IMG/VR virus record: IMGVR_UViG_3300029228_000011
DNA from: a virus
DNA length: 37,280 nt
Strand: one strand, 5' to 3'
Shown one piece after another: positions 1,063 to 37,191 of this stretch. The position numbers and the translations under genes were made by a program. The notes beneath the pieces were generated by a model. That model worked only from the letters and a program-made list of their open reading frames with translations, did no database searches and was not told where the DNA came from. The stretch's first letter is position 1; every line of letters begins with the position of its first letter.

Positions 1063-1872
1063 TTAATACAGTGTTGATTTATTTAATTCTTCCACCAGTT
1101 CCCTCTCGCGTTCTGAAAGTTCATAACAGATGGTATCCTCTGCTGCTTTTTCTGCTGCCTGCTTTTCTGCGTTCTGCTTCCTGGCTGCCGCCTGGTCTGA
1201 CAGCAGAAGCCCTGCCCCGTAAATCGTTTTTTTCATGGCCCTTTGGGCGTCCAGGCTTCGCACATGCTGGCATTCTTCACGCCTTACCCTGAAATGCACG
1301 CCGTAGCGTGCCATTTTCTGCATCATGGCAGCGGTAACGATATGATCCGGATAATCATACTTTGACAATTTCCGTGTCTTTTCCTGCCTCAGCTTTTCTG
1401 TTGTATCATTCACCAGCTTTGTCAGCTCCGGTGATGTCTCTGCTACCGTTTCCGGTTCGAAACTGGTAATAAACGATGTCTTCACAGTTGCACCGTTTTC
1501 GTATTCGATCGTGCAGTCGCACACAATATGGTTCATTCTGTCCCAGGTAGTCTTGCCGGATAATGCCGTGAGTGACGGGGCAAACAAAAAGAACGGGATG
1601 CCCCGTTCCAGATAAAATTCACATATATTTTTCAGGATGGAAAAAGGCGGGTTGTCCACCACCACACATCCCGGCGGATATTCGTCTTTTTCGTAATCGC
1701 CGCCCGGCCAGAATGGGCGAATCACGTTCTCAGGATCAATATTGTAACGTTTGCACACCCAGTCCTTTATGACTTCGTATATCTCCGATGGCGTATAGCA
1801 GTCGTCTGTCGTTTTCTTCGGTTTGAATTTTTCGACAAATTCTTCATAGGTTTTGCTTTTTATGTTTCTCAC
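1063..1872 (-). CDS. Orphan DNA methyltransferase (N6-adenine type, EcoRI-methylase-like family)
   Basis: 269 aa. Catalytic motif IV is VVVDNPPFS ((D/N)PP(F/Y)). The N-terminal TTDDCYTP...DNPPFSILKNI layout is as recalled for phage EcoRI-methylase-like methyltransferases. No restriction endonuclease gene lies adjacent. The start codon is uncertain: the GTG at 1872 is embedded in the SD (see findings). Confidence 0.8.
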   Translation of the reverse strand: MRNIKSKTYEEFVEKFKPKKTTDDCYTPSEIYEVIKDWVCKRYNIDPENVIRPFWPGGDYEKDEYPPGCVVVDNPPFSILKNICEFYLERGIPFFLFAPSLTALSGKTTWDRMNHIVCDCTIEYENGATVKTSFITSFEPETVAETSPELTKLVNDTTEKLRQEKTRKLSKYDYPDHIVTAAMMQKMARYGVHFRVRREECQHVRSLDAQRAMKKTIYGAGLLLSDQAAARKQNAEKQAAEKAAEDTICYELSERERELVEELNKSTLY

Positions 1873-1890
1873 CTCCTTAAAAATGGGTAC

Positions 1891-1920
1891 AAAAATACCA
1901 CCAGTCGAAAGACCAGTGGT
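1891..1920 (-). terminator. Strand-specific hairpin terminator after the MuF/55-aa gene pair
   Basis: Minus-strand RNA forms ACCACUGGUC-UUUC-GACUGGUGGU, with two G-U pairs that would be C-A mismatches on the plus strand. AUUUUUG follows. Confidence 0.6.
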
Positions 1921-1935
1921 AAATACTTATTTTTC

Positions 1936-2103
1936 TTAGTTGTCAATAACTTTCACTATATCATCAATAGTTGCATCAATAGTATCCCAATCTGTAGGCG
2001 AATCACCCACATCTACCAGAAAATGCGTATCGTCTAATATCTCCACAACTGCTGCTTTTCGTCCATCTTTTAGAAGAATTGTGTCATATTCCTTTATGAG
2101 CAT
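1936..2103 (-). CDS. 55-aa protein, DUF4926-like; candidate immunity/partner for the C-terminal module of the MuF protein
   Basis: Not in the ORF track because it is under 60 aa. I translated it as MLIKEYDTILLKDGRKAAVVEILDDTHFLVDVGDSPTDWDTIDATIDDIVKVIDN*. The ATG at 2103 lies immediately after the MuF stop (2104..2106). SD AAGGAGG sits 8 nt upstream, inside the MuF 3' end. The pattern resembles small DUF4926 proteins as I recall them. Confidence 0.7.
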   Translation of the reverse strand: MLIKEYDTILLKDGRKAAVVEILDDTHFLVDVGDSPTDWDTIDATIDDIVKVIDN

Positions 2104-3825
2104 TTACTTCGCCTCCTTAATGTACGCACTAGTCAACTTTGTTGTGCCATCTTCCGTCCTGAGCCATGCTACAACTACATTTGCTGGTGTTTCTTTTTTA
2201 CCATAAAGAATCATCTTCTGGACATATCTGTCGCCGTATCCATTATTATCAACATACTGAGCCGGATATTTCACAGCTCCCTGTTTTAACGCTTTTTGAA
2301 GTTCCTGCCAATTTCCCATTTCATAGCCCAAGCGATCTGTAAAGGCTCTTCCCTTTGGATACCCTTTTTGACTGTTTTCATCAAAAAGATATTTCGTAAA
2401 CTTAGGCTCTGGTAAAATAGCCGTTTCTGCATTCGGTAGTTTAAGCTCTGGATGTTCCAGAAGCTCCTTTTGTCTTTGATAATCCATTTCGACGAACTTC
2501 CATTTTTCAGGGTCATTATACTTCATCTGCCTGAAATCCGCAAGACTTCCAGCATCTTCTTTCAGCACTTCCTTGTACCGTTCGTACTGGTTCGAATCAA
2601 TCTTAGCATTCCGCATCATCTCCGGTGTATAGCGTGCGTTCTGCTGTTTCGTGTTGGTCGCTACCTTGCCCAGTCCATCCTGATAGATTCTCTCACGCTG
2701 TTCCGGAAGTCCCATCTTCTTGCTGAACTGCTTATACTCGTTCAGCTGTCCCTGGTACTTTGCTTTTTCCAGCATGATGTCGTCCTTGTCGGCTCCTGCT
2801 TCCTGCAACAGCCGTATCTTCTGACGCTGGGCACGCATGGCGGTCTCCATCTTCCTCTGCTGCTGGGTCTGTTCGTAGGCATTGAGCTGCCTGCCGTTCC
2901 ATTCTTTTGTCTGGGCTTCCCTTTTGTTCTGCTCTTCCAGCCAGTCATCCGGATAGAGTCTTTCAGAAACGCCAGGAATGAACGGGTGGAACGTGTGCCG
3001 GCAGTTCGCCCCACACAATCCTGTGACGGTTCCGTATCCGCAGACCGTCCCTAATTCCTTCCTGCTGAACACCCTGCCCTGCCATGTCTGGTGATCTGGT
3101 CTCGCACATGGGTGCCAGGACACTTCAAAATACTCTGTATCGAGTTTTTCTGCGTTGTGCTCACTGACCTGTGCCGTGATCTGGTTCACGCCCGTAAGGA
3201 CGGCTCTGCGTGCTGCCACGTCTGCCCGGTTCGTATGCCCGGAAGCGTAATCCACAAACCTCAGCCCGCTGTTCGTCATCTGGGTGACGACTTTCCGGAT
3301 CGCCGAGTTGTAGTCTGTGCCTCCCGTCACAACGTCCTGGATGGCCGTGTCCACGTATTTCTGGTAGTACTCGGCAAATGGTGTGAACACCCGCTTCCCT
3401 GCCATCAGGACTGAAAATCCGTAGCTCTGTGCCATATTAACGAGCGTGTCTTTTGTCTGCTTCCTGGCTGCCTCTGTGATCTGTCGCAGCCACTTGTTAT
3501 CCTCCGGCGTCAGGAAATCATCATTGACCTGTTCATAGATCTCCCGGTTACGGACATATTCCCATTCCGCTACCTTGTCATACATCTCGAACATTTCCGG
3601 CCAGGTTGCCCCCAGTGCCTCCTTGATGATCCGCTCCACCTCTTCCCGGGACTTGCCCATCTCGATCAGGCGGTTGATCTGGTAGTCTGCCGTTGATGTG
3701 ATCTCACCGGCCTTTTTTATCCTGCGGATGACATCCCCCATGATACGCCGCTCTGCTTCCCTCCAGATCTTCTCAGCCTGCAACCCCATCCGCTGCACAT
3801 CCGGTGCTGTCCTCTCCCCTGCCAT
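2104..3825 (-). CDS. Phage minor capsid / head-morphogenesis protein (MuF / SPP1 gp7 type) with a coiled-coil linker and an unrelated C-terminal DUF6883-like module
   Basis: 573 aa. The conserved Cys/His core is VSWHPCARPDHQTWQGRVF...CGANCRHTFHPF. It sits directly after the portal gene. Residues about 300-470 are Q/E/K-rich. The last 99 aa (2107..2403) read KFTKYLFDENSQKGYPKGRAFTDRLGY...VVVAWLR...KLTSAYI. Confidence 0.85.
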   Translation of the reverse strand: MAGERTAPDVQRMGLQAEKIWREAERRIMGDVIRRIKKAGEITSTADYQINRLIEMGKSREEVERIIKEALGATWPEMFEMYDKVAEWEYVRNREIYEQVNDDFLTPEDNKWLRQITEAARKQTKDTLVNMAQSYGFSVLMAGKRVFTPFAEYYQKYVDTAIQDVVTGGTDYNSAIRKVVTQMTNSGLRFVDYASGHTNRADVAARRAVLTGVNQITAQVSEHNAEKLDTEYFEVSWHPCARPDHQTWQGRVFSRKELGTVCGYGTVTGLCGANCRHTFHPFIPGVSERLYPDDWLEEQNKREAQTKEWNGRQLNAYEQTQQQRKMETAMRAQRQKIRLLQEAGADKDDIMLEKAKYQGQLNEYKQFSKKMGLPEQRERIYQDGLGKVATNTKQQNARYTPEMMRNAKIDSNQYERYKEVLKEDAGSLADFRQMKYNDPEKWKFVEMDYQRQKELLEHPELKLPNAETAILPEPKFTKYLFDENSQKGYPKGRAFTDRLGYEMGNWQELQKALKQGAVKYPAQYVDNNGYGDRYVQKMILYGKKETPANVVVAWLRTEDGTTKLTSAYIKEAK

Positions 3826-3829
3826 GGCA

Positions 3830-5179
3830 TCACTCCATCACGGTGTTCTGGATTGGCAGGTTCTTCCTGGCTGTCGCCTCATCCTCGTTGTACCACTTCA
3901 TACGGTATTCAACTGCAGACATCACACCCATAGAAACGTCCTGGCGGTCCTGCTGCCGTTCGGAGTCTTCGTCCGTCAGGATGGAATCGTTGAACTTGCA
4001 GGCAAATTCATAACCGGAATGGTACATGCTGTTATAGAACGCCAGGGCAGCGGCATAATCCTCCAGGCATTCTTTCAGGTTCTCCTGGATCGCTGTCACA
4101 CGGTTGTATTTCCGTGTTTTCGAGACACGTACCTCAGTCGCTGTCTTGGATACCTCCTGAACGTCTGACAGGTCACCGTAGGCAAGCCCGACTGTGAACT
4201 CAATGTTCCGGTAATACTTCTCAAGGCCGGCAATATAGGAAGCGTCCCGCATCGCCGGGGAATATTCCCGCAGCAGTTCCTTATCCTTGCCGTCCTCGAT
4301 GTTCAGGCCGCGGTACAGGCGTTTGTTCAGCTGTGCCATCCGTGTGCCCCTGCTTCCGCGTTTCAGTGCACGTTCATCCACATGCACGGCACGCTCGCCG
4401 GATTCATACTCCCAGTCGAGCCTTGCCGCCTGGATGTCTGCCTTGCGGATCAGGTCGGCAGCAGCGTCAAAGATTGACACCCCACAGAATGAACCGTCAA
4501 TCCGGTTTTTGAGTGGGTTGCGGTAGTACCCGAAGTCCATGCGGTCCATTCCTGGATAGGTCACCGGACCCTGGTTGATGTCTGCCCATTCGTCCACCGC
4601 ATCCAGGCTGCATGGTGTACCAAGGTGATTCCGGTCAAGGGAATGGTAGCACTTGTTTTCGATCGTCAGGTTTCCGTTCGTGAAGTAATGACGCTCCATT
4701 TTCGTGTAATAGTCATATTCCCCCACCCGCTTAACGGTCAGAAAAGCAACATCGACCGGTTTCCCGGAATCATCGAAGCGGACCGGCACGAACTTATCAG
4801 CTGTGACGAACTCTGTCCTGTCTGCCCCCAGCGGCCGCAGGATAAAAGAGCCGAAACCAAGACCGTCCTGCAGGTTCTCATTCAGGTCTAACAGCCCCTT
4901 CTGGTAAGCCGCATCCAGCCGGTCATTGTTCAGGATGGAGCTTTCCATCTCAACCAGCACCGCATCCGCAAATTCGCGGCAGATACCGGACTCAATCCGA
5001 AGCGACACCACCGGGTCCACGCACCACGGTGCCTTCCCGTCCATCATGCCGCCCCAGCTTTCCAGGGCTTCGACCATGGACTGTGACAGCGTCAGTTCAC
5101 GCCCCAGGGCTGTTTTCAGTGTCGTATAATCAAACAATCTCCTCACCTCTCTCCATATCCGTTTTGCAAAATCAAACAT
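3830..5179 (-). CDS. Portal protein
   Basis: 449 aa. Lies between the terminase large subunit and the MuF gene, with an 8-nt overlap with terL. Size and position are typical. Confidence 0.85.
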   Translation of the reverse strand: MFDFAKRIWREVRRLFDYTTLKTALGRELTLSQSMVEALESWGGMMDGKAPWCVDPVVSLRIESGICREFADAVLVEMESSILNNDRLDAAYQKGLLDLNENLQDGLGFGSFILRPLGADRTEFVTADKFVPVRFDDSGKPVDVAFLTVKRVGEYDYYTKMERHYFTNGNLTIENKCYHSLDRNHLGTPCSLDAVDEWADINQGPVTYPGMDRMDFGYYRNPLKNRIDGSFCGVSIFDAAADLIRKADIQAARLDWEYESGERAVHVDERALKRGSRGTRMAQLNKRLYRGLNIEDGKDKELLREYSPAMRDASYIAGLEKYYRNIEFTVGLAYGDLSDVQEVSKTATEVRVSKTRKYNRVTAIQENLKECLEDYAAALAFYNSMYHSGYEFACKFNDSILTDEDSERQQDRQDVSMGVMSAVEYRMKWYNEDEATARKNLPIQNTVME

Positions 5180-6503
5180 CCTCCACCTCCTGGATGAGTT
5201 CCTTCAGGTCGCGTTCTATGGTGTACTCGAACGCATCCAGGCTGTCTATGTCCGTGCTGCCATCGTCCAGCCGCTCATCATCCTGTTCCTCCCTGTTCCA
5301 GACCGCATCCGAAAATGCTGTTTCCAGGCTCTCGCAGTCGTCTGTAAGAAAAAACCGCCCGGCTCCCATAAGCCTGACGGTCGCATTGATACGGTCATTT
5401 ACACGTTTCTTCTTTGCCGGTTTCACGCTGATCCACGGGAAACGCTTCTCGACCGCGTTCCGGATGGAATTACCCAGCACGGTTTCTGCATTGTCCCAGA
5501 AGACCGTTTCTACGTTGCAGTATTCGATGGTATCCCAGTGTCTTACAACATCCGCATACTGGTCGATCACATCCTGCACGAAATCACAGAACAGTTGATC
5601 CAGACGGTTGCTGTCGATCGGGTCGTCTTTCTCTTTTGCCATGACCCGGCGGGATTTCAGGGCGATCACATCCCGGTAATTGTCCGTGTACCCTCTTGCC
5701 ACGAACGCATGGCCGGACTTGTTGCCGCCGAAGTCCAGACCGATCTCGATGGATACAAGGTCCTGCTTCCGAAACTCCTTGCAGTCCGGGCTGCTTCCGG
5801 GATGTTCTACGATCCCGCACCGGAACGCTTCCGGGTGGTCTGCAAAATTCTTGTAGATCGAACCGTCTGCACGCTTCCAGAGTCCTAAGATCAGGCGGTC
5901 GTAGTAGATCGTGCCTTCGTATTCCCTGCAGAGCTGTTCCACAAAAGCCGGATCCAGGTACGGGTTGTCAAAGATCGTGTACTTTTGCAGGTAGATATCA
6001 AGCTCCGGTGTGTCCAGGAACTCTTTCAGCCAGTGGGTAGGATGCTCCGGGTTGCATGACCCGTCAAAGCAGCTGTAAGGCTTATCGAGTCGTGATTTGA
6101 GCATCTGGAACACTTCTTTGTTCCACTTGGCGATCTCATCCCCGTAGCAGTATTTGATGCTCGCACCCTGGATCTTGGCAACCTGGCTGACCTTCTCCGC
6201 CCCCAGGCAGTAGACATCCTCACCGCATACCCTTGCAATGTTTCGGTTGTTGATGTTGCCGACCAGCTTATCGGTATAGATCTCACGCATCGGCTGGAGC
6301 ACGTTTCGCTCGATGGATTCCTTCGACACGCCAAGGATCACATTCAGCCCCGGTTTTCCCGCCCTCTCACGGATCCGGAAGGGAATGACAAAAGCCGTAT
6401 CTACAAAAGACTTCCCGGAACGTACTGCCCCGGATTTAATGTTCCAGCGGTGCGTTGCGTTCACGATGTATTCATTCTGCATTTTGCTCAACTGCATTGT
6501 CAC
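5172..6503 (-). CDS. terL: Terminase large subunit
   Basis: 443 aa. N-terminal Walker-A-like SGAVRSGKS. Position is upstream of the portal. Overall resembles PBSX/SPP1-type large terminases. Confidence 0.9.
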   Translation of the reverse strand: MTMQLSKMQNEYIVNATHRWNIKSGAVRSGKSFVDTAFVIPFRIRERAGKPGLNVILGVSKESIERNVLQPMREIYTDKLVGNINNRNIARVCGEDVYCLGAEKVSQVAKIQGASIKYCYGDEIAKWNKEVFQMLKSRLDKPYSCFDGSCNPEHPTHWLKEFLDTPELDIYLQKYTIFDNPYLDPAFVEQLCREYEGTIYYDRLILGLWKRADGSIYKNFADHPEAFRCGIVEHPGSSPDCKEFRKQDLVSIEIGLDFGGNKSGHAFVARGYTDNYRDVIALKSRRVMAKEKDDPIDSNRLDQLFCDFVQDVIDQYADVVRHWDTIEYCNVETVFWDNAETVLGNSIRNAVEKRFPWISVKPAKKKRVNDRINATVRLMGAGRFFLTDDCESLETAFSDAVWNREEQDDERLDDGSTDIDSLDAFEYTIERDLKELIQEVEDV

Positions 6504-6933
6504 GCACCTCCTTCAGTATCGCATCCAGCTTCTCAAGTGCCTCGTCCGTCTCATTCTCACCTGTGACTGCCTGTTTCCTCGCTTTCTTAAGCTCTGTATC
6601 TGCTTCCTTGTTGCGGATGTCCTCCTCTGCCGCCCCGTTCTGCCCTGCATACTGAGCCACGAAGTAAGCGGCTTTGGTGTTTCCCTGCATCGCTTCCCGG
6701 ATCTGAGCCGCCAGCATCGCAGATTCAAGTGTACAGTCCAAGCCGATCGACTCCAGGAACGGTTTCCACTCCGGGTTGTCAATTTCCGCTGTCAGCAGGG
6801 CGTTCAACGTCTTCCGGAACTCTGCTTTTCGCCGCCTTGCCTTCCCGGATGCCTGGCCGCCTTTTCTGGCGTATTCTCTCACTTCACTCTCGCTTCGTTT
6901 GTCAAAAGGCACTAAGTTTTCATTGTTTGCCAA
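6472..6933 (-). CDS. terS: Terminase small subunit (putative)
   Basis: 153 aa. Basic N-terminal region YARKGGQASGKARRRKAEFRK. Lies immediately upstream of terL and overlaps it. TTG start preceded by AAGGAAGG. Confidence 0.7.
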   Translation of the reverse strand: MANNENLVPFDKRSESEVREYARKGGQASGKARRRKAEFRKTLNALLTAEIDNPEWKPFLESIGLDCTLESAMLAAQIREAMQGNTKAAYFVAQYAGQNGAAEEDIRNKEADTELKKARKQAVTGENETDEALEKLDAILKEVRDNAVEQNAE

Positions 6934-7065
6934 TCACCTCACCTTCCTTTGTTCTGTTGTTATTTTTGAGTACACAAAAAGACACCCAGCACTGCCAGAT
7001 GTCTTCCTGCGGAAAATGTAGTATTCTTTTTGAGAAAGGATTCTTATATGCCCCCATCAGGGAAA

Positions 7066-7141
7066 TCGGAACAGAAGGACTCGAACCTTCGACAAACACT
7101 GGTTATGAACCAGCTGCTCTCACCGACTGAGCTATGTTCCA
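7066..7141 (-). tRNA. Phage-encoded tRNA with anticodon CAT (Met, or lysidine-modified Ile2)
   Basis: Hand-folded cloverleaf. Acceptor stem TGGAACA/TGTTCCG (U1-G72). D-arm GCTC-AGTCGGTGA-GAGC. Anticodon arm GCTGG-TTCATAA-CCAGT. T-arm GAAGG-TTCGAGT-CCTTC. Discriminator A, no encoded CCA. The variable region is 7 nt (GTTTGTC), which is unusual. Confidence 0.75.
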
Positions 7142-7144
7142 ATG

Positions 7145-19450: not shown

Positions 19451-20020
19451 ATGGAATTTTACGACGATATGCAAGAACCCTATTGGTTAGACGAAGATTA
19501 TCGTCAAATATCTGAACAATATTTTTCAGGTATGGAAGCAATAGAATCTGACTGGTCTGTCATGTATAACTTGAAAGACTACGAGGGCGAACGTGCTTCA
19601 ATTTTCATACAAAATTGCAAAAATAATATTGAAGCTTTTAAAATCTGGAAGAAAATCAGTGAAAAATATAAACAAGACTCTCCTCCGTGTGTTCCTGCCT
19701 ATAAACGTCTGGCGATGATTTATGAAAAACAGGGGCTTTACGAAAACGCTGCTGCCGTGTGTGTAGAAGCATTAACCATGAATGTAACAGTCGATGACAC
19801 AAAAGCCGGCATGAAAGGACGATTAACACGTATGATAAAGAAAGCTGGACGTCAGCCCTCACAGCAAGAATTCCTGTTGCTGGAACCTGCAAAAATCACA
19901 CTGCCTAAAGAAATCCTTCGTACACGCTGGGGTGATTACGAAATGCCTGACCATTACACTTTGGATATTCGCAAAGGTCCGCGTTACGACTTAAAAAAGA
20001 TAAAGGAGAGCAAGCCATGA
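19451..20020 (+). CDS. Hypothetical protein with a TPR-like helical repeat (189 aa), cassette gene 1
   Basis: SD AAAGGAGAAAAGAGG lies upstream. AYKRLAMIYEKQGLYENAAAVCVEAL looks like a TPR-type repeat. Its stop overlaps the next start (ATGA at 20017..20020). Confidence 0.7.
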   Translation: MEFYDDMQEPYWLDEDYRQISEQYFSGMEAIESDWSVMYNLKDYEGERASIFIQNCKNNIEAFKIWKKISEKYKQDSPPCVPAYKRLAMIYEKQGLYENAAAVCVEALTMNVTVDDTKAGMKGRLTRMIKKAGRQPSQQEFLLLEPAKITLPKEILRTRWGDYEMPDHYTLDIRKGPRYDLKKIKESKP

Positions 20021-20964
20021 AACTGACATCCGGTTTTAATTTTGAAAATTATGAAATTACAGATTATTTAGGATTTTGTTCAGGAGAATACGCTTTAAAT
20101 ACAAAGTTTCTTTCTGACTTTAATCTTTTATCTTCGTACTCTGAAAAACTTGAAGCGGCTCAAAAAAATGCTCTCGACCTTTTAATCAGCAACGCAAAGC
20201 AAATGGGTGCCAATGCAATTATCGGACTCGATATCGATTATACCACTGATGATCATGATATTATGGGCGTAATCGCAAATGGCACTGCTGTAACAATAAA
20301 GAGCACTTTGAAAGAACCTGTCGTTCCTGTAAAAATAAATGTTATCAATTATAACCCTGATTTGGAATTTAGGGTATCCTCCTTGACAATATTGCCAGAC
20401 GCCGAAAAACCTACGATTACTGCAACATTATTCGGAAAATCATCTGAAAATATCACTGGTGTTCTCACCGATATCTTTCTTGTTGATATCTTTAATGAAT
20501 TGCACCCCGTGCATTGCACAGGTTTTTCACGTTTTGATGTTGCACAAAACTTTGCTACTTCCATCAGTACACCTGTTCCTTGCAGTTTGGAACTTAATAT
20601 ACTTCCGTTGATTAAATGTGCAAAGGTAGTTATTAAAAAATATATATCCGACAACACAGTCATAACAGCTTCCGACAATAATAGTCTTCTGGATATCGAG
20701 CAAGAGGATATTCTTGAAAATAGCAATGACAATATTTTTTCTAACTACAAATTACAGTTAGATGAATATATGGATTCTGTATGCCACATGAACTCTGCCA
20801 CTGAAATATTGCATTATACAAAAAACCTTATTGAAGAAAATCATGATTTTATACAGGCTGACTTAATACAATTGATTTCTTCTTGTGCAAGTCTTGAGCG
20901 TATGTATGGAAATTGTAAAAACGATTGCATTGAAAAAATCAAAACTTATTTTGATAGTATCTAA
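20017..20964 (+). CDS. YbjQ/UPF0145-like N-terminal domain protein with an unknown C-terminal region of about 200 aa (315 aa), cassette gene 2
   Basis: GFNFENYEITDYLGFCSGEY...AQKNALDLLISNAKQMGANAIIGLDIDY...GVIANGTAVTIK matches the recalled YbjQ-family pattern. No TM segments and no catalytic motif recognised in the remainder. Confidence 0.7.
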   Translation: MKLTSGFNFENYEITDYLGFCSGEYALNTKFLSDFNLLSSYSEKLEAAQKNALDLLISNAKQMGANAIIGLDIDYTTDDHDIMGVIANGTAVTIKSTLKEPVVPVKINVINYNPDLEFRVSSLTILPDAEKPTITATLFGKSSENITGVLTDIFLVDIFNELHPVHCTGFSRFDVAQNFATSISTPVPCSLELNILPLIKCAKVVIKKYISDNTVITASDNNSLLDIEQEDILENSNDNIFSNYKLQLDEYMDSVCHMNSATEILHYTKNLIEENHDFIQADLIQLISSCASLERMYGNCKNDCIEKIKTYFDSI

Positions 20965-21088
20965 AAACAACCAAACAACAAAAAATCCGCCCCAGTGTTA
21001 CCAGCACCGAAGCGGATCAGTGAATCTATACAGGTCTGGAGACCGGTATGATCCTTCCATAGCAAGAAGATTATACCACAATCCTCCA

Positions 21089-21111
21089 ACACCTGTACAG
21101 GTGTATTTTTT
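21089..21111 (+). terminator. Terminator of the two-gene cassette
   Basis: The perfect palindrome ACACCTGTACAGGTGT (21089..21104) is followed by ATTTTTT. Confidence 0.6.
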
Positions 21112-21142
21112 ATACTCATTTTACGAAAAGGAGGATGATACT

Positions 21143-22372
21143 ATGCCAACAGCAAAAAAATTACCGTCTGGATCCTGGCGTTGCCTTGCATATAGCCATA
21201 CCGAAAAGATATTCGATGAAAAATCCGGAACCTGGAAAAATAAGCGGATCTATGAATCTTTCACTTCTGATGATCCAACAAAGAGGGGAAAGCATGAAGC
21301 AGAATTGGCAGCTAACCAGTTTCTTCTCACTAAACGTAAGGATAAGCAAAGCACTATAAATATTACACTGTCGGAAGCGATCGAGCGTTATATTGAGAAA
21401 TCTGACAGTGCATTATCCGGCACTACGATGCAGGGCTACCGCAAAGATCAATACGATTCCTACAAACCACTTTTTGACACCCGACTGCGTGATATAACAT
21501 CTGATGATCTGCAAGATGCTGTTAATCGCGACTGCAAGCGTCTGTCAAAAAGAAACAAGAAAAACCCGAAGCCTATATCTCCAAAAACGGTAAAAAATAC
21601 CTACGGCTTTATTTCCGCTGCCATCCATTCCTGTATGCCAGACGCATCTTATTGCGTAAAGCTTCCAACTGTGCCCCAAAAGGTGAAAGAATTGATCCCA
21701 CCACAAACAATCCTGGAGATCATAAAGGGAACAGATATTGAACTCCCGTGCTTACTTGCCATGTGGCTGAGTTTTTCCATGAGTGAAATTCGAGGAATCA
21801 AATATAAAGACATTGAAGACGGCTATCTGCGGATTGACCGGGTGGTGGTAGACATTAATGGCGAGGCTTCTGTGAAAGAATCTGGAAAAGCAGCCAAACG
21901 TCTGCGAAAACACCGCATCCCTCCATACATAATGGAATTGATACCAAAAGGTGATCCATACGATTATCTCATCGCTCAAAGCGGTCATGCTATCTATATG
22001 AAGTGGTCAATGCTTCTGAAAAAGAATCATCTCCCGCACATGACATTTCACGATCTGCGACATGAAAACGCATCTATCATGCATATGCTGAACATCCCGG
22101 ATAAATATGCCATGGAACGTGGCGGCTGGAAAACAGACAAGGTTATGAAGCAAATCTATACACACACCTTTTCAGATGGTCGCATCAAAGCAGATGATGC
22201 AATCGACAGATACTTTGAAAATTTACTCGAAAATAATCCTGTAGATATTGACCAGAAGAAATATAAAGCCTGGCTTCTTCTGTACGAAAAAGAGGATTCC
22301 AAACAGAGCAAAGAAGAATTTTTAGCATTTATGCAACACGAAATGCAACACAAAAAGAAAAAAGCCCGATAA
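21143..22372 (+). CDS. int: Tyrosine recombinase (phage integrase)
   Basis: 409 aa, counting from the ATG at 21143 behind SD AAAGGAGGA. The tracked ORF's 5' extension from 20885 is discarded. Motifs: SEIRGIKYKDI (Arg), FHDLRHENAS (HxxR), GGWKTDKVMKQIYTH (catalytic Tyr). Confidence 0.9.
   Translation: MPTAKKLPSGSWRCLAYSHTEKIFDEKSGTWKNKRIYESFTSDDPTKRGKHEAELAANQFLLTKRKDKQSTINITLSEAIERYIEKSDSALSGTTMQGYRKDQYDSYKPLFDTRLRDITSDDLQDAVNRDCKRLSKRNKKNPKPISPKTVKNTYGFISAAIHSCMPDASYCVKLPTVPQKVKELIPPQTILEIIKGTDIELPCLLAMWLSFSMSEIRGIKYKDIEDGYLRIDRVVVDINGEASVKESGKAAKRLRKHRIPPYIMELIPKGDPYDYLIAQSGHAIYMKWSMLLKKNHLPHMTFHDLRHENASIMHMLNIPDKYAMERGGWKTDKVMKQIYTHTFSDGRIKADDAIDRYFENLLENNPVDIDQKKYKAWLLLYEKEDSKQSKEEFLAFMQHEMQHKKKKAR
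22330..22351 (+). repeat. 22-nt direct repeat, copy 1 (possible integrase arm site)
   Basis: tatgcaacacgaaatgcaacac is identical to 22533..22554. It lies in the int 3' end. Confidence 0.8.
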
Positions 22373-36627: not shown

Positions 36628-37191
36628 CTATTTGCTTTCCGCAGGTGGTAAACCTGCTGCTGCCCTCATGGCAGCCAGTGCCGAGTCCGTTCCGCCGTTC
36701 CCGCCGGACGGTCCGACCGGATTCTTGAAAGGTTCATCTGACCCAAACAGATAAGCGTCAGACTCTTTTGCGGCATCCAGTGCTTTCTTGATGTCCGCAC
36801 TCTGGTCTTTGGATTCCCTTAAGGCATCCATGTCAAGCAGTGCCATGACCGCCTTTGCATTTCTGCCGCCTGCTTCCTTGATCGCAGATCTGACGGAATC
36901 TGTAAACACACGTTCCGCTTCCTTTGCGTCATACGTCTCTTTCTGCGTCTTCAAGTCGTCCTGGAGTTTTGTGATCTGCCCTTTGAGGTCTGCGACGTCA
37001 ACGCCGTCAAACTCCTTGAGCTTCCCGTTTACCGTATCCAGTGAAGTCTTGTACTCGTCCCGCTGGTTCACTGCTTTGTCGTACTCGTTTTTGGTGCGGT
37101 AGTTCTCCTTCCAGGACTTGTCAAAATCTGCCTTTTTCTCTTCCGGGATCTCCAGACCGTAATCTTTCAGAATCTCATAGATATTTTTCAT
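36628..37191 (-). CDS. Scaffolding protein (GP20-like)
   Basis: 187 aa, helical and charged. MKNIYEILKDYGLEIPEEKKADFDKSWKENYRTKNEYD. SD AGGAGG lies 9 nt upstream. Confidence 0.8.
   Translation of the reverse strand: MKNIYEILKDYGLEIPEEKKADFDKSWKENYRTKNEYDKAVNQRDEYKTSLDTVNGKLKEFDGVDVADLKGQITKLQDDLKTQKETYDAKEAERVFTDSVRSAIKEAGGRNAKAVMALLDMDALRESKDQSADIKKALDAAKESDAYLFGSDEPFKNPVGPSGGNGGTDSALAAMRAAAGLPPAESK

Follow-up and report, generated by a model that had tools for sequence, protein, structure and literature searches.

A MuF head-protein gene with an exchangeable DUF6883 tip and a coupled 55-aa gene: a probable polymorphic toxin-immunity locus in a temperate gut phage

In the present study, we analyzed a MuF-family gene and the small gene that directly follows it in the IMG/VR virus record IMGVR_UViG_3300029228_000011, a stretch of 37,280 nucleotides that is called the window below. 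The MuF gene encodes a 573-aa protein with a phage head domain at its N-terminus and a DUF6883 domain at its C-terminus, and the small gene encodes a 55-aa protein. Our results indicated that the locus is probably a polymorphic toxin-immunity system of the MuF class, carried by a temperate siphovirus-like phage that infects a gut member of the Lachnospiraceae, with a ribonuclease (RNase) tip, a 55-aa immunity protein, cassettes that are swapped between phages, and delivery through the portal. The polymorphic-toxin reading of the locus was strongly supported at the level of sequence; from there we infer RNase activity and its substrate, neutralization by binding, packaging and delivery. The features of the locus were as follows (ORF, open reading frame).

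2104..3825, minus strand: putative MuF-family polymorphic toxin gene, 573 aa (ORF; PF06152 and PF21814; phrog_581, 'minor head protein')
2725..3780, minus strand: MuF2 core (Phage_min_cap2, PF06152), residues 16-367 (Pfam E 9.7e-103)
2500..2724, minus strand: conserved linker, residues 368-442 (phrog_21033 over residues 306-447; DNA homology ends at 2498-2502)
2595..2500, minus strand: junction motif SNQYERYKEVLKEDAGSLADFRQMKYNDPEKW closing the linker, residues 411-442 (precedes seven of 11 tail types)
1902..2499, minus strand: exchangeable candidate toxin-immunity cassette, 598 bp (blastn breakpoints; GC 0.39)
2116..2442, minus strand: DUF6883 domain, residues 462-570, predicted BECR-fold, histidine-free RNase toxin (PF21814, AlphaFold2, Foldseek)
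2112..2118, minus strand: AAGGAGG Shine-Dalgarno sequence of the 55-aa gene, within the coding end of the toxin gene, 8 nt before the ATG
1936..2103, minus strand: 55-aa candidate immunity gene, predicted SH3/KOW-like five-stranded barrel (ORF, phrog_34731, AlphaFold2)
1886..1921, minus strand: intrinsic terminator with an 11-bp stem, a 4-nt loop and a T-run (the 3' cassette boundary lies inside it)

Exchange of the C-terminal cassette

IMG/VR was searched with MuF residues 1-410, the reading frames of the 80 loci found were extended to their stop codons, and the next ORF was taken in each case. The 80 loci sorted into 11 tail types, which are given below with the size of the downstream ORF.

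DUF6883 tail, the type of the window: 18 loci; identical 55-aa ORF
Toxin-deaminase tail: L022, L036 and L041; 128 aa; MuF cores 95-98% identical; PF14424 at 63.9 bits
Ntox50 tail: L026, L028 and L091; 67-73 aa; MuF cores 96% (L026, L028) and 48% (L091) identical; PF15542 at 56.8 bits
'SKHFxERVIG' tail: 13 loci, including L013, L015, L037 and L021; 71-85 aa; L013 core 99% identical
HExxH peptidase-like tails, three types: 15 loci; 51-96 aa; ATLF at 24.9 bits against 27.4, below the cutoff
Four other tails: 18 loci (15 of one type and three singletons); 77-95 aa; no Pfam family above the cutoff

It was observed that MuF cores 96-99% identical in protein bore at least five different tips, and that each tip type was followed by a different small ORF of 51-128 aa. 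MuF proteins lacking an extension were found only at about 50% identity (L085, L087-L090). At least eight other tips occurred in phages whose flanking DNA was 92-98% identical. An earlier sequence-only reading of this DNA had proposed the layout of MuF, linker, variable toxin and immunity gene, and had suggested looking for C-terminal cassettes that are swapped together with co-varying micro-genes. All the sequence-level hallmarks of that layout were present; near-identical MuF cores bore different tips, and the module was not invariant.

The limits of the exchanged segment were determined by blastn against the phages with other tips. Identity of 92-98% continued until window position 2498-2502 and resumed from 1901 downward, with sharp breakpoints at 2499/2500, right after KYNDPEKW (residues 435-442), and at 1901/1902. 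Because the flanking homology stopped and resumed at these positions, the exchange unit was taken as window 1902..2499. This 598-bp cassette covered MuF residues 443-573 and the 55-aa gene and extended through most of the terminator. Its GC content was 0.39, lower than that of the MuF core (0.54) or of the window as a whole (0.48). The junction motif, in the general form QYxRYKxxLxxDAGSLxxFxQxKYNDxEKW, was common to the seven tail types mentioned above. When the DUF6883 family was compared with the Ntox50-bearing tail by hhalign, the similarity was confined to 35 junction columns (probability 94.8%). The KYNDxEKW junction was common to MuF1 and MuF2 phages.

The gene pair itself was arranged as the sequence-only reading had described it. 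Both ORFs were located, and the toxin TAA (2106..2104) was followed by the ATG of the 55-aa gene (2103..2101) with no spacer between the genes. The AAGGAGG sequence was seen at 2118..2112 inside the MuF coding end, and the minus-strand hairpin (stem 1921..1896), followed by TTTTT, closed the gene pair as a strand-specific terminator. The portal gene (3830..5179) ended 4 nt before the MuF start. The quoted peptide motifs of the 573-aa protein were all found, with WHPCARPDHQ at residues 237-246, CGANCRHTFHPF at 271-282 and KFTKYLF at 475-481. Two lengths given for the protein required revision. The foreign C-terminus was present and was longer than the 99 aa claimed for it, since the Pfam domain spanned 109 aa and the DNA-defined unit comprised residues 443-573. 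The length of about 170 aa given for the coiled-coil linker applies only when the Cys/His motif is taken as its start; between PF06152 and PF21814 the linker was about 95 aa (residues 368-461).

The DUF6883 module and the small protein were found to travel together. In 11 of 12 DUF6883 loci, the distance from the stop of the toxin gene to the start of the small gene was -3 to +4 nt, and the exception was a degenerate copy at a contig edge (L094). The identities of the toxin and of the small protein co-varied, with a Spearman coefficient of 0.83 over 21 non-independent pairs. The same pair was also fused to the other branch of the superfamily, MuF1 (PF04233), in L006 (513 aa and 57 aa) and L096 (526 aa and 54 aa).

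Additional copies were found as orphan cassettes. In L001, a MuF1 protein with an 'SKHFLERVIG' tip and an 86-aa partner was followed two genes on by a free 193-aa ORF (region 5952-6752), which consisted of a direct repeat of the MuF1 gene's own linker (239 nt, 98% identical) and then DUF6883; the product of the 55-aa gene after it was 76% identical to that of the window. In L026 (5814-6986), a second toxin tip of another type and a 58-aa ORF lay downstream and were bracketed by copies of the linker (300 nt, 94%) and of the 3' flank (208 nt, 98%). This orphan tip, EELKALKHYLESNPGNS, and its 58-aa partner had no Pfam assignment among the families checked. In L005 (4363-7027), a Mu-like prophage, a MuF1-Toxin-deaminase gene was convergent with an orphan DUF6883 cassette, and the two shared a 249-nt inverted linker repeat (86%); a recombination event between these arms would flip the segment and thereby exchange the tip of the toxin. 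In this orphan, one in-frame stop interrupted the toxin gene, and the 57-aa gene was intact and identical to its L006 counterpart. The L009 site (4731-5165) was chromosomal and flanked by metabolic genes; there, a 54-aa homologue of the small protein was intact and the toxin was reduced to a relic of the last DUF6883 strand ('...SMAPAYVKEA'), so that this site looks like an immunity-only remnant. Free-standing DUF6883 proteins of 120-290 aa also occurred with a small partner. The inspected copies were regarded as orphan cassettes, because they started with a copy of the MuF linker and lay downstream of a MuF toxin gene. Within the window, no second, orphan cassette was found.

Families and predicted folds of the two proteins

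Both ends of the 573-aa protein were assigned by Pfam. The N-terminal part matched PF06152 at 344 bits against a cutoff of 26.3, over profile positions 12-364 of 366. In the terminology of Jamet et al. (2017, PMC5576092), PF06152 is the 'MuF2' family within the MuF superfamily. The core had been read from sequence as MuF-type, which was right for the superfamily; its family is PF06152 and not PF04233 itself. The C-terminal module aligned to positions 1-109 of the 110-position PF21814 (DUF6883) profile and scored 57.2 bits, where the gathering score is 27, and all close homologues of the module carried a precomputed PF21814 annotation. The proposed identity of this module with DUF6883 was thus confirmed above the Pfam cutoff.

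We then modeled residues 462-573 with AlphaFold2 from 27 homologues, which gave a predicted local distance difference test score (pLDDT) of 93.6 and a predicted template modeling score of 0.85. The modeled domain had three helices (12-19, 27-38 and 42-58) followed by a four-stranded antiparallel sheet. In a Foldseek search of the PDB, the best matches were four chains of 109-119 residues in the structure of the Klebsiella pneumoniae 342 CdiA-CT/CdiI complex (6CP9; E 3e-4 to 2e-3, probability 1.0, template modeling (TM) score 0.70-0.72, 110-117 aligned columns). The next matches were 6CP8 and 6VEK (CdiA-CT EC3006), and BrnT and HigB matched weakly. The Kp342 toxin has been reported to consist of helices and then four strands, and its immunity protein to be almost all beta (PMC9086364); on that description, the matched 6CP9 chains were identified as the toxin. 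The two CdiA-CT tRNases share the BECR fold and cleave tRNA-Ile(GAU) in its acceptor stem, for which they use a Lys-Tyr-Thr triad together with His and Arg (PMC9086364). Since the model matched the tRNase toxin CdiA-CT Kp342, DUF6883 is probably a BECR-fold RNase. The statement that no activity is known for the family can accordingly be refined to a modeled BECR fold whose nearest structure is CdiA-CT Kp342.

To this fold, conserved residues could be added. Among 125 DUF6883 modules, the conserved polar set comprised K475, Y479, K491, R498, Y501, N505, Y534, Q536, N549, W554, Y568, K570 and E571, and K475, Y479, K491, R498, Y534, Q536, N549, Y568 and K570 reached 87-100% conservation. K475 and Y479 were located on helix 1, and T565, S566, Y568 and K570 on the last strand. 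The Lys and Tyr of helix 1 and the Thr/Ser and basic residue of the last strand may parallel K157/Y160 and R252/T255 of Kp342. BECR RNases that work without a histidine exist, such as RelE and colicin E5. The conserved set of colicin E5 has been given as K, W, Y, Y, Q, [RK] and W (Zhang et al., PMC3482391).

Several further searches were carried out with the same domain. In the BFVD, the model matched 'minor capsid proteins' of other gut phages and one 316-aa 'zinc metallopeptidase'. A sequence search of the PDB with the DUF6883 profile returned matches to a repeated motif in de novo TIM barrels, which were discarded as spurious. The only paper found to mention DUF6883, a preprint on the classification of BECR ribonucleases (2026-08-29, 10.64898/2026.08.28.747851), names DUF6883 six times, DUF4926 twice and MuF once, which suggests that the assignment of DUF6883 to this fold is already being made by others.

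The 55-aa protein was less clearly placed. It had been taken for a DUF4926 protein, and this membership was not established: the protein scored 16.3 bits with PF16277 against 29.1 (E 0.006). Among its relatives, 13 of the 17 close ones and 12 of the 64 more distant ones also gave weak DUF4926 matches, the best with an E of 6.8e-5 and none at the gathering score. AlphaFold2 modeled the protein as a five-stranded SH3/KOW-like barrel (pLDDT 94.8). The 55-aa family is probably a divergent sister of DUF4926 with the same small-barrel fold; like the 55-aa protein, DUF4926 proteins are small (about 55-60 aa) and all beta. The protein belonged to phrog_34731 (function not assigned) with an E of 3.9e-13. 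The ORF was clearly conserved, as 33 close homologues were found and 337 clusters at 50% identity matched its profile at E <= 1e-3, and its coupling to DUF6883 was described above. NCBIfam gave no match for either protein, and no helix-turn-helix, ribbon-helix-helix or AbrB match was found in the 55-aa protein. Among the GenBank phage records, residues 3-36 matched at 53% identity a segment of a hypothetical protein of 122 aa that is encoded by four Streptococcus satellite phages (e.g., L106, MK448427.1, Javan321, 2300-2668), where it lies near a RelE/DinJ-type pair with no DUF6883; this match was judged uninformative.

Proposed mechanism, alternatives and relation to known systems

From these results we propose the following mechanism. 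The N-terminal MuF2 domain would be a conserved head protein, made from the late operon beside the portal gene. The linker that ends in ...KYNDPEKW would join it to a horizontally exchangeable tip of about 130 aa and would serve as the 5' homology arm. New tips, together with their own immunity genes, would be brought in by homologous recombination, with the linker as one arm and the conserved 3' flank as the other, and the donors may be other phages or orphan cassettes. The DUF6883 tip would act as an endoribonuclease that does not use a histidine, with tRNA or another RNA of the translation machinery as its likeliest target. The translationally coupled 55-aa SH3-like protein would be the cognate immunity protein, which would inhibit the RNase by binding to it in the cell that makes the toxin. 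The MuF domain may place a few toxin copies at the portal, a head position inferred from SPP1 gp7 (PMC5576092), so that the toxin would leave the capsid with the DNA and act in the newly infected cell. In its most specific form, the proposal makes DUF6883 a BECR tRNase without a histidine that travels inside the capsid as part of MuF and reaches recipient cells in trans along with the phage DNA; in this form it is tentative and rather doubtful.

A number of observations weigh against the proposal. The delivery of any MuF toxin through the portal is still a hypothesis in the literature (e.g., PMC5576092). No histidine was conserved in the 125 DUF6883 modules, whereas Kp342 needs one, and the suggested correspondence with the catalytic residues of Kp342 was drawn from the spacing of the residues in the sequence and the common topology. 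The 55-aa protein matched neither a known immunity family nor a PADLOC model, and its structural model matched only generic barrels (eL14, Spt5 KOW and MutS2), all with an E above 0.03. The candidate immunity gene lies in a late operon, a position that does not in itself account for expression in a lysogen. A search for a promoter upstream of this gene gave one weak site (2274..2245), no better than chance, and the surrounding region contained fewer promoter-like sites than shuffled sequence; an internal promoter was therefore not supported.

The first alternative is that the RNase is injected with the DNA for the benefit of the infecting phage itself, in host takeover or anti-defence, and is not a weapon of the lysogen. 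It might stop translation in the host, influence whether the phage enters lysis or lysogeny, or inactivate a defence based on RNA. In that case, the 55-aa protein would protect just the producing cell late in infection. This alternative was also proposed by Jamet et al. (PMC5576092), MuF proteins are described as sitting at the portal in few copies per capsid, and another report sets polyvalent phage proteins with fused effectors in phage-host conflict (PMC5512222). The location of the immunity gene within the late operon and the lack of a convincing separate promoter would also fit. Against it, rapid swapping of tips among 96-99% identical phages is a signature of strain antagonism with discriminating immunity. 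Moreover, immunity genes persisted where the toxin was broken (L005) or gone (L009), which fits a toxin that comes from outside and hints that cells have been selected to resist it. Because immunity genes stay intact next to broken toxins, action in trans was mildly favored. We consider the injected effector unlikely, and the two readings are not mutually exclusive.

A second, quite improbable alternative is a toxin-antitoxin or abortive-infection module that acts in cis, landed in the MuF gene, became fused to it and is never packaged, and that stabilizes the prophage or kills superinfected cells. The BECR fold includes RelE, HigB and BrnT, the last two of which were weak structural matches, and the free-standing DUF6883 proteins of 120-290 aa with a small partner would agree with it, as would the pairing of DUF6883 and DUF4926 as frequent neighbors in bacterial genomes that the sequence-only reading put forward. 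The free-standing copies, where inspected, were orphan cassettes. In type II systems the antitoxin is usually encoded first and binds DNA; at this locus the toxin comes first and is fused to a head protein, and the 55-aa partner has no DNA-binding domain. The in-frame fusion was kept in 18 loci of the phage group and in MuF1 phages, the same slot also held deaminase and Ntox50 polymorphic-toxin domains, and PADLOC gave no match. Least probable is a non-toxic structural or nucleic-acid-binding head accessory with the 55-aa protein as its assembly chaperone: the missing catalytic histidine and the frequent binding of nucleic acid or ribosomal components by SH3/KOW-like barrels would agree with it, but the domain was swapped for deaminase, Ntox50 and metallopeptidase-like domains between 96-99% identical cores, the composition break and the orphan copies pointed to a mobile accessory cassette, and the best structural neighbors were RNase toxins.

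The proposed toxin-immunity system was next compared with known ones. MuF toxins have been described as a MuF domain with an extension and a small immunity ORF in temperate Firmicute phages (PMC5576092; PMC3482391, as 'MuF phage-capsid-like'). The window shared with them the N-terminal MuF domain right after the portal gene, the C-terminal extension with a small ORF of less than 150 aa, and the setting in a temperate phage of a Firmicute from the human gut, and its sister phages carried tips known from other polymorphic-toxin families (Toxin-deaminase and Ntox50). It differed in the tip, since DUF6883 has no activity assigned in Pfam. The MuF tips listed in PMC3482391 already include BECR RNases. 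MuF toxins are abundant in gut prophages, and few tips have been characterized; an ADP-ribosyltransferase and (p)ppApp synthetases are those cited in the literature consulted. Among the latter, Apk2 (Apk2/IapK/Aph1), a MuF toxin of a Streptococcus pneumoniae prophage, has a C-terminal domain that is toxic in E. coli and is neutralized through binding by a small protein encoded downstream (PMC12226406). Apk2 is a (p)ppApp synthetase with two immunity genes, whereas the window encodes a predicted RNase with one.

In comparison with CdiA-CT Kp342/CdiI (6CP9) and EC3006 (6CP8), the predicted DUF6883 fold aligned over its full length (TM 0.70-0.72), with its conserved Lys and Tyr on helix 1 and, on the final strand, Thr/Ser together with a basic residue. 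The position at the tip of a polymorphic toxin, followed by a small gene for a mostly beta (here putative) immunity protein, was also shared. The identity was 11-14% with no match at the sequence level, DUF6883 lacked a conserved histidine, and the 55-aa SH3-like barrel was unrelated to CdiI. The delivery domain is a phage head protein here and a type V secretion filament for CdiA-CT. The cassettes of L001, L026 and L005 resembled the orphan C-terminal toxin/immunity modules of contact-dependent inhibition (CDI) and Rhs systems, which are promoter-less tips with immunity genes downstream of the main gene and start with a copy of the pre-toxin segment that permits homologous recombination. They differed in that they lay inside a phage genome of about 37 kb and belonged to a head-gene module; none was present in the phage of the window.

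The class of MuF polymorphic toxins is thus already known (PMC3482391, PMC5576092), and the DUF6883 tip with its very small SH3-like partner is what is newly added. The boundaries at base level, the KYNDxEKW junction shared by MuF1 and MuF2, the phage-borne orphan cassettes and the immunity-only relics are incremental additions that were not found in PMC5576092, which does not mention the breakpoint motif, the DNA-level cassette boundaries or orphan cassettes. For DUF6883, the analysis adds a probable RNase fold, candidate catalytic residues and a very small putative immunity partner. The phages form a near-isogenic natural series, with 92-98% identical flanks, at least eight tips, a 598-bp cassette, a junction shared with MuF1 and a cultured lysogen, and this series could provide the first direct test of MuF-mediated toxin delivery and could serve for tests of immunity specificity and of ecological role. 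KYNDxEKW could be a recombination arm alone or also a site of processing or release. The locus extends a known toxin class and does not overturn it.

Phage, host and neighboring genes

The window appears to be the complete genome of a temperate phage (about 37 kb), because head and packaging genes, an integrase, an amidase endolysin and replication genes are all encoded in it. On the minus strand, the order was a small terminase candidate, the large terminase (5172..6503), the portal (phrog_533, E 2e-107), the MuF gene, the 55-aa gene and four accessory genes; across the window ends, the scaffold (36628..37191) and then the capsid followed. The tyrosine integrase was encoded at 20885..22372 (PF00589). 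The same element was found as a prophage in an 86-kb contig of Hominisplanchenecus faecis CLA-AA-H246, a cultured gut bacterium of the Lachnospiraceae. This prophage was 94.7% identical to the window in DNA over 2,968 bp, and its DUF6883 module and 55-aa protein were both 100% identical to those of the window. The integrase and the prophage in an isolate showed that the phage is temperate. Among 50,697 GenBank phage genomes, no match was found by megablast with 12 kb of the window or by tblastn with the DUF6883 module.

A tRNA-Met(CAT) gene was located at 7065..7142 on the minus strand, just upstream of the terminase genes. It was considered as compensation for the predicted tRNase, and this idea was not supported: the gene was also present in sister phages with a HEMWH metallopeptidase-like tip. 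Because it accompanied DUF6883 and HEMWH tips alike, it is not tied to the RNase cassette.

The cassette was followed by a 269-aa ORF (1063..1872, minus strand) that belonged to phrog_21498 and had no Pfam match; its VVDNPPFS resembled, by eye, motif IV of an N6-adenine methyltransferase. In a phage that was 96.7% identical (L003, 5232-6438), this slot contained a 211-aa ORF and a Tad2-like gene (PF11195) instead. Since other genes occupied the slot in that phage, the stretch from the MuF cassette to the scaffold was taken as a second hot spot for accessory genes. Two small accessory genes lay further downstream, at 370-759 and 760-1044 on the minus strand. One encoded a 129-aa protein with a lipoprotein-like N-terminus, PF25682 (Phage_VG64) and phrog_478, which is labeled as a recombination directionality factor; the other encoded a 94-aa DUF6275 protein, and in L001 DUF6275 sat between the MuF toxin and the orphan cassette. 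On the plus strand, a 315-aa protein (20017-20964) with an N-terminal YbjQ_1 domain (PF01906) overlapped the start of the integrase gene.

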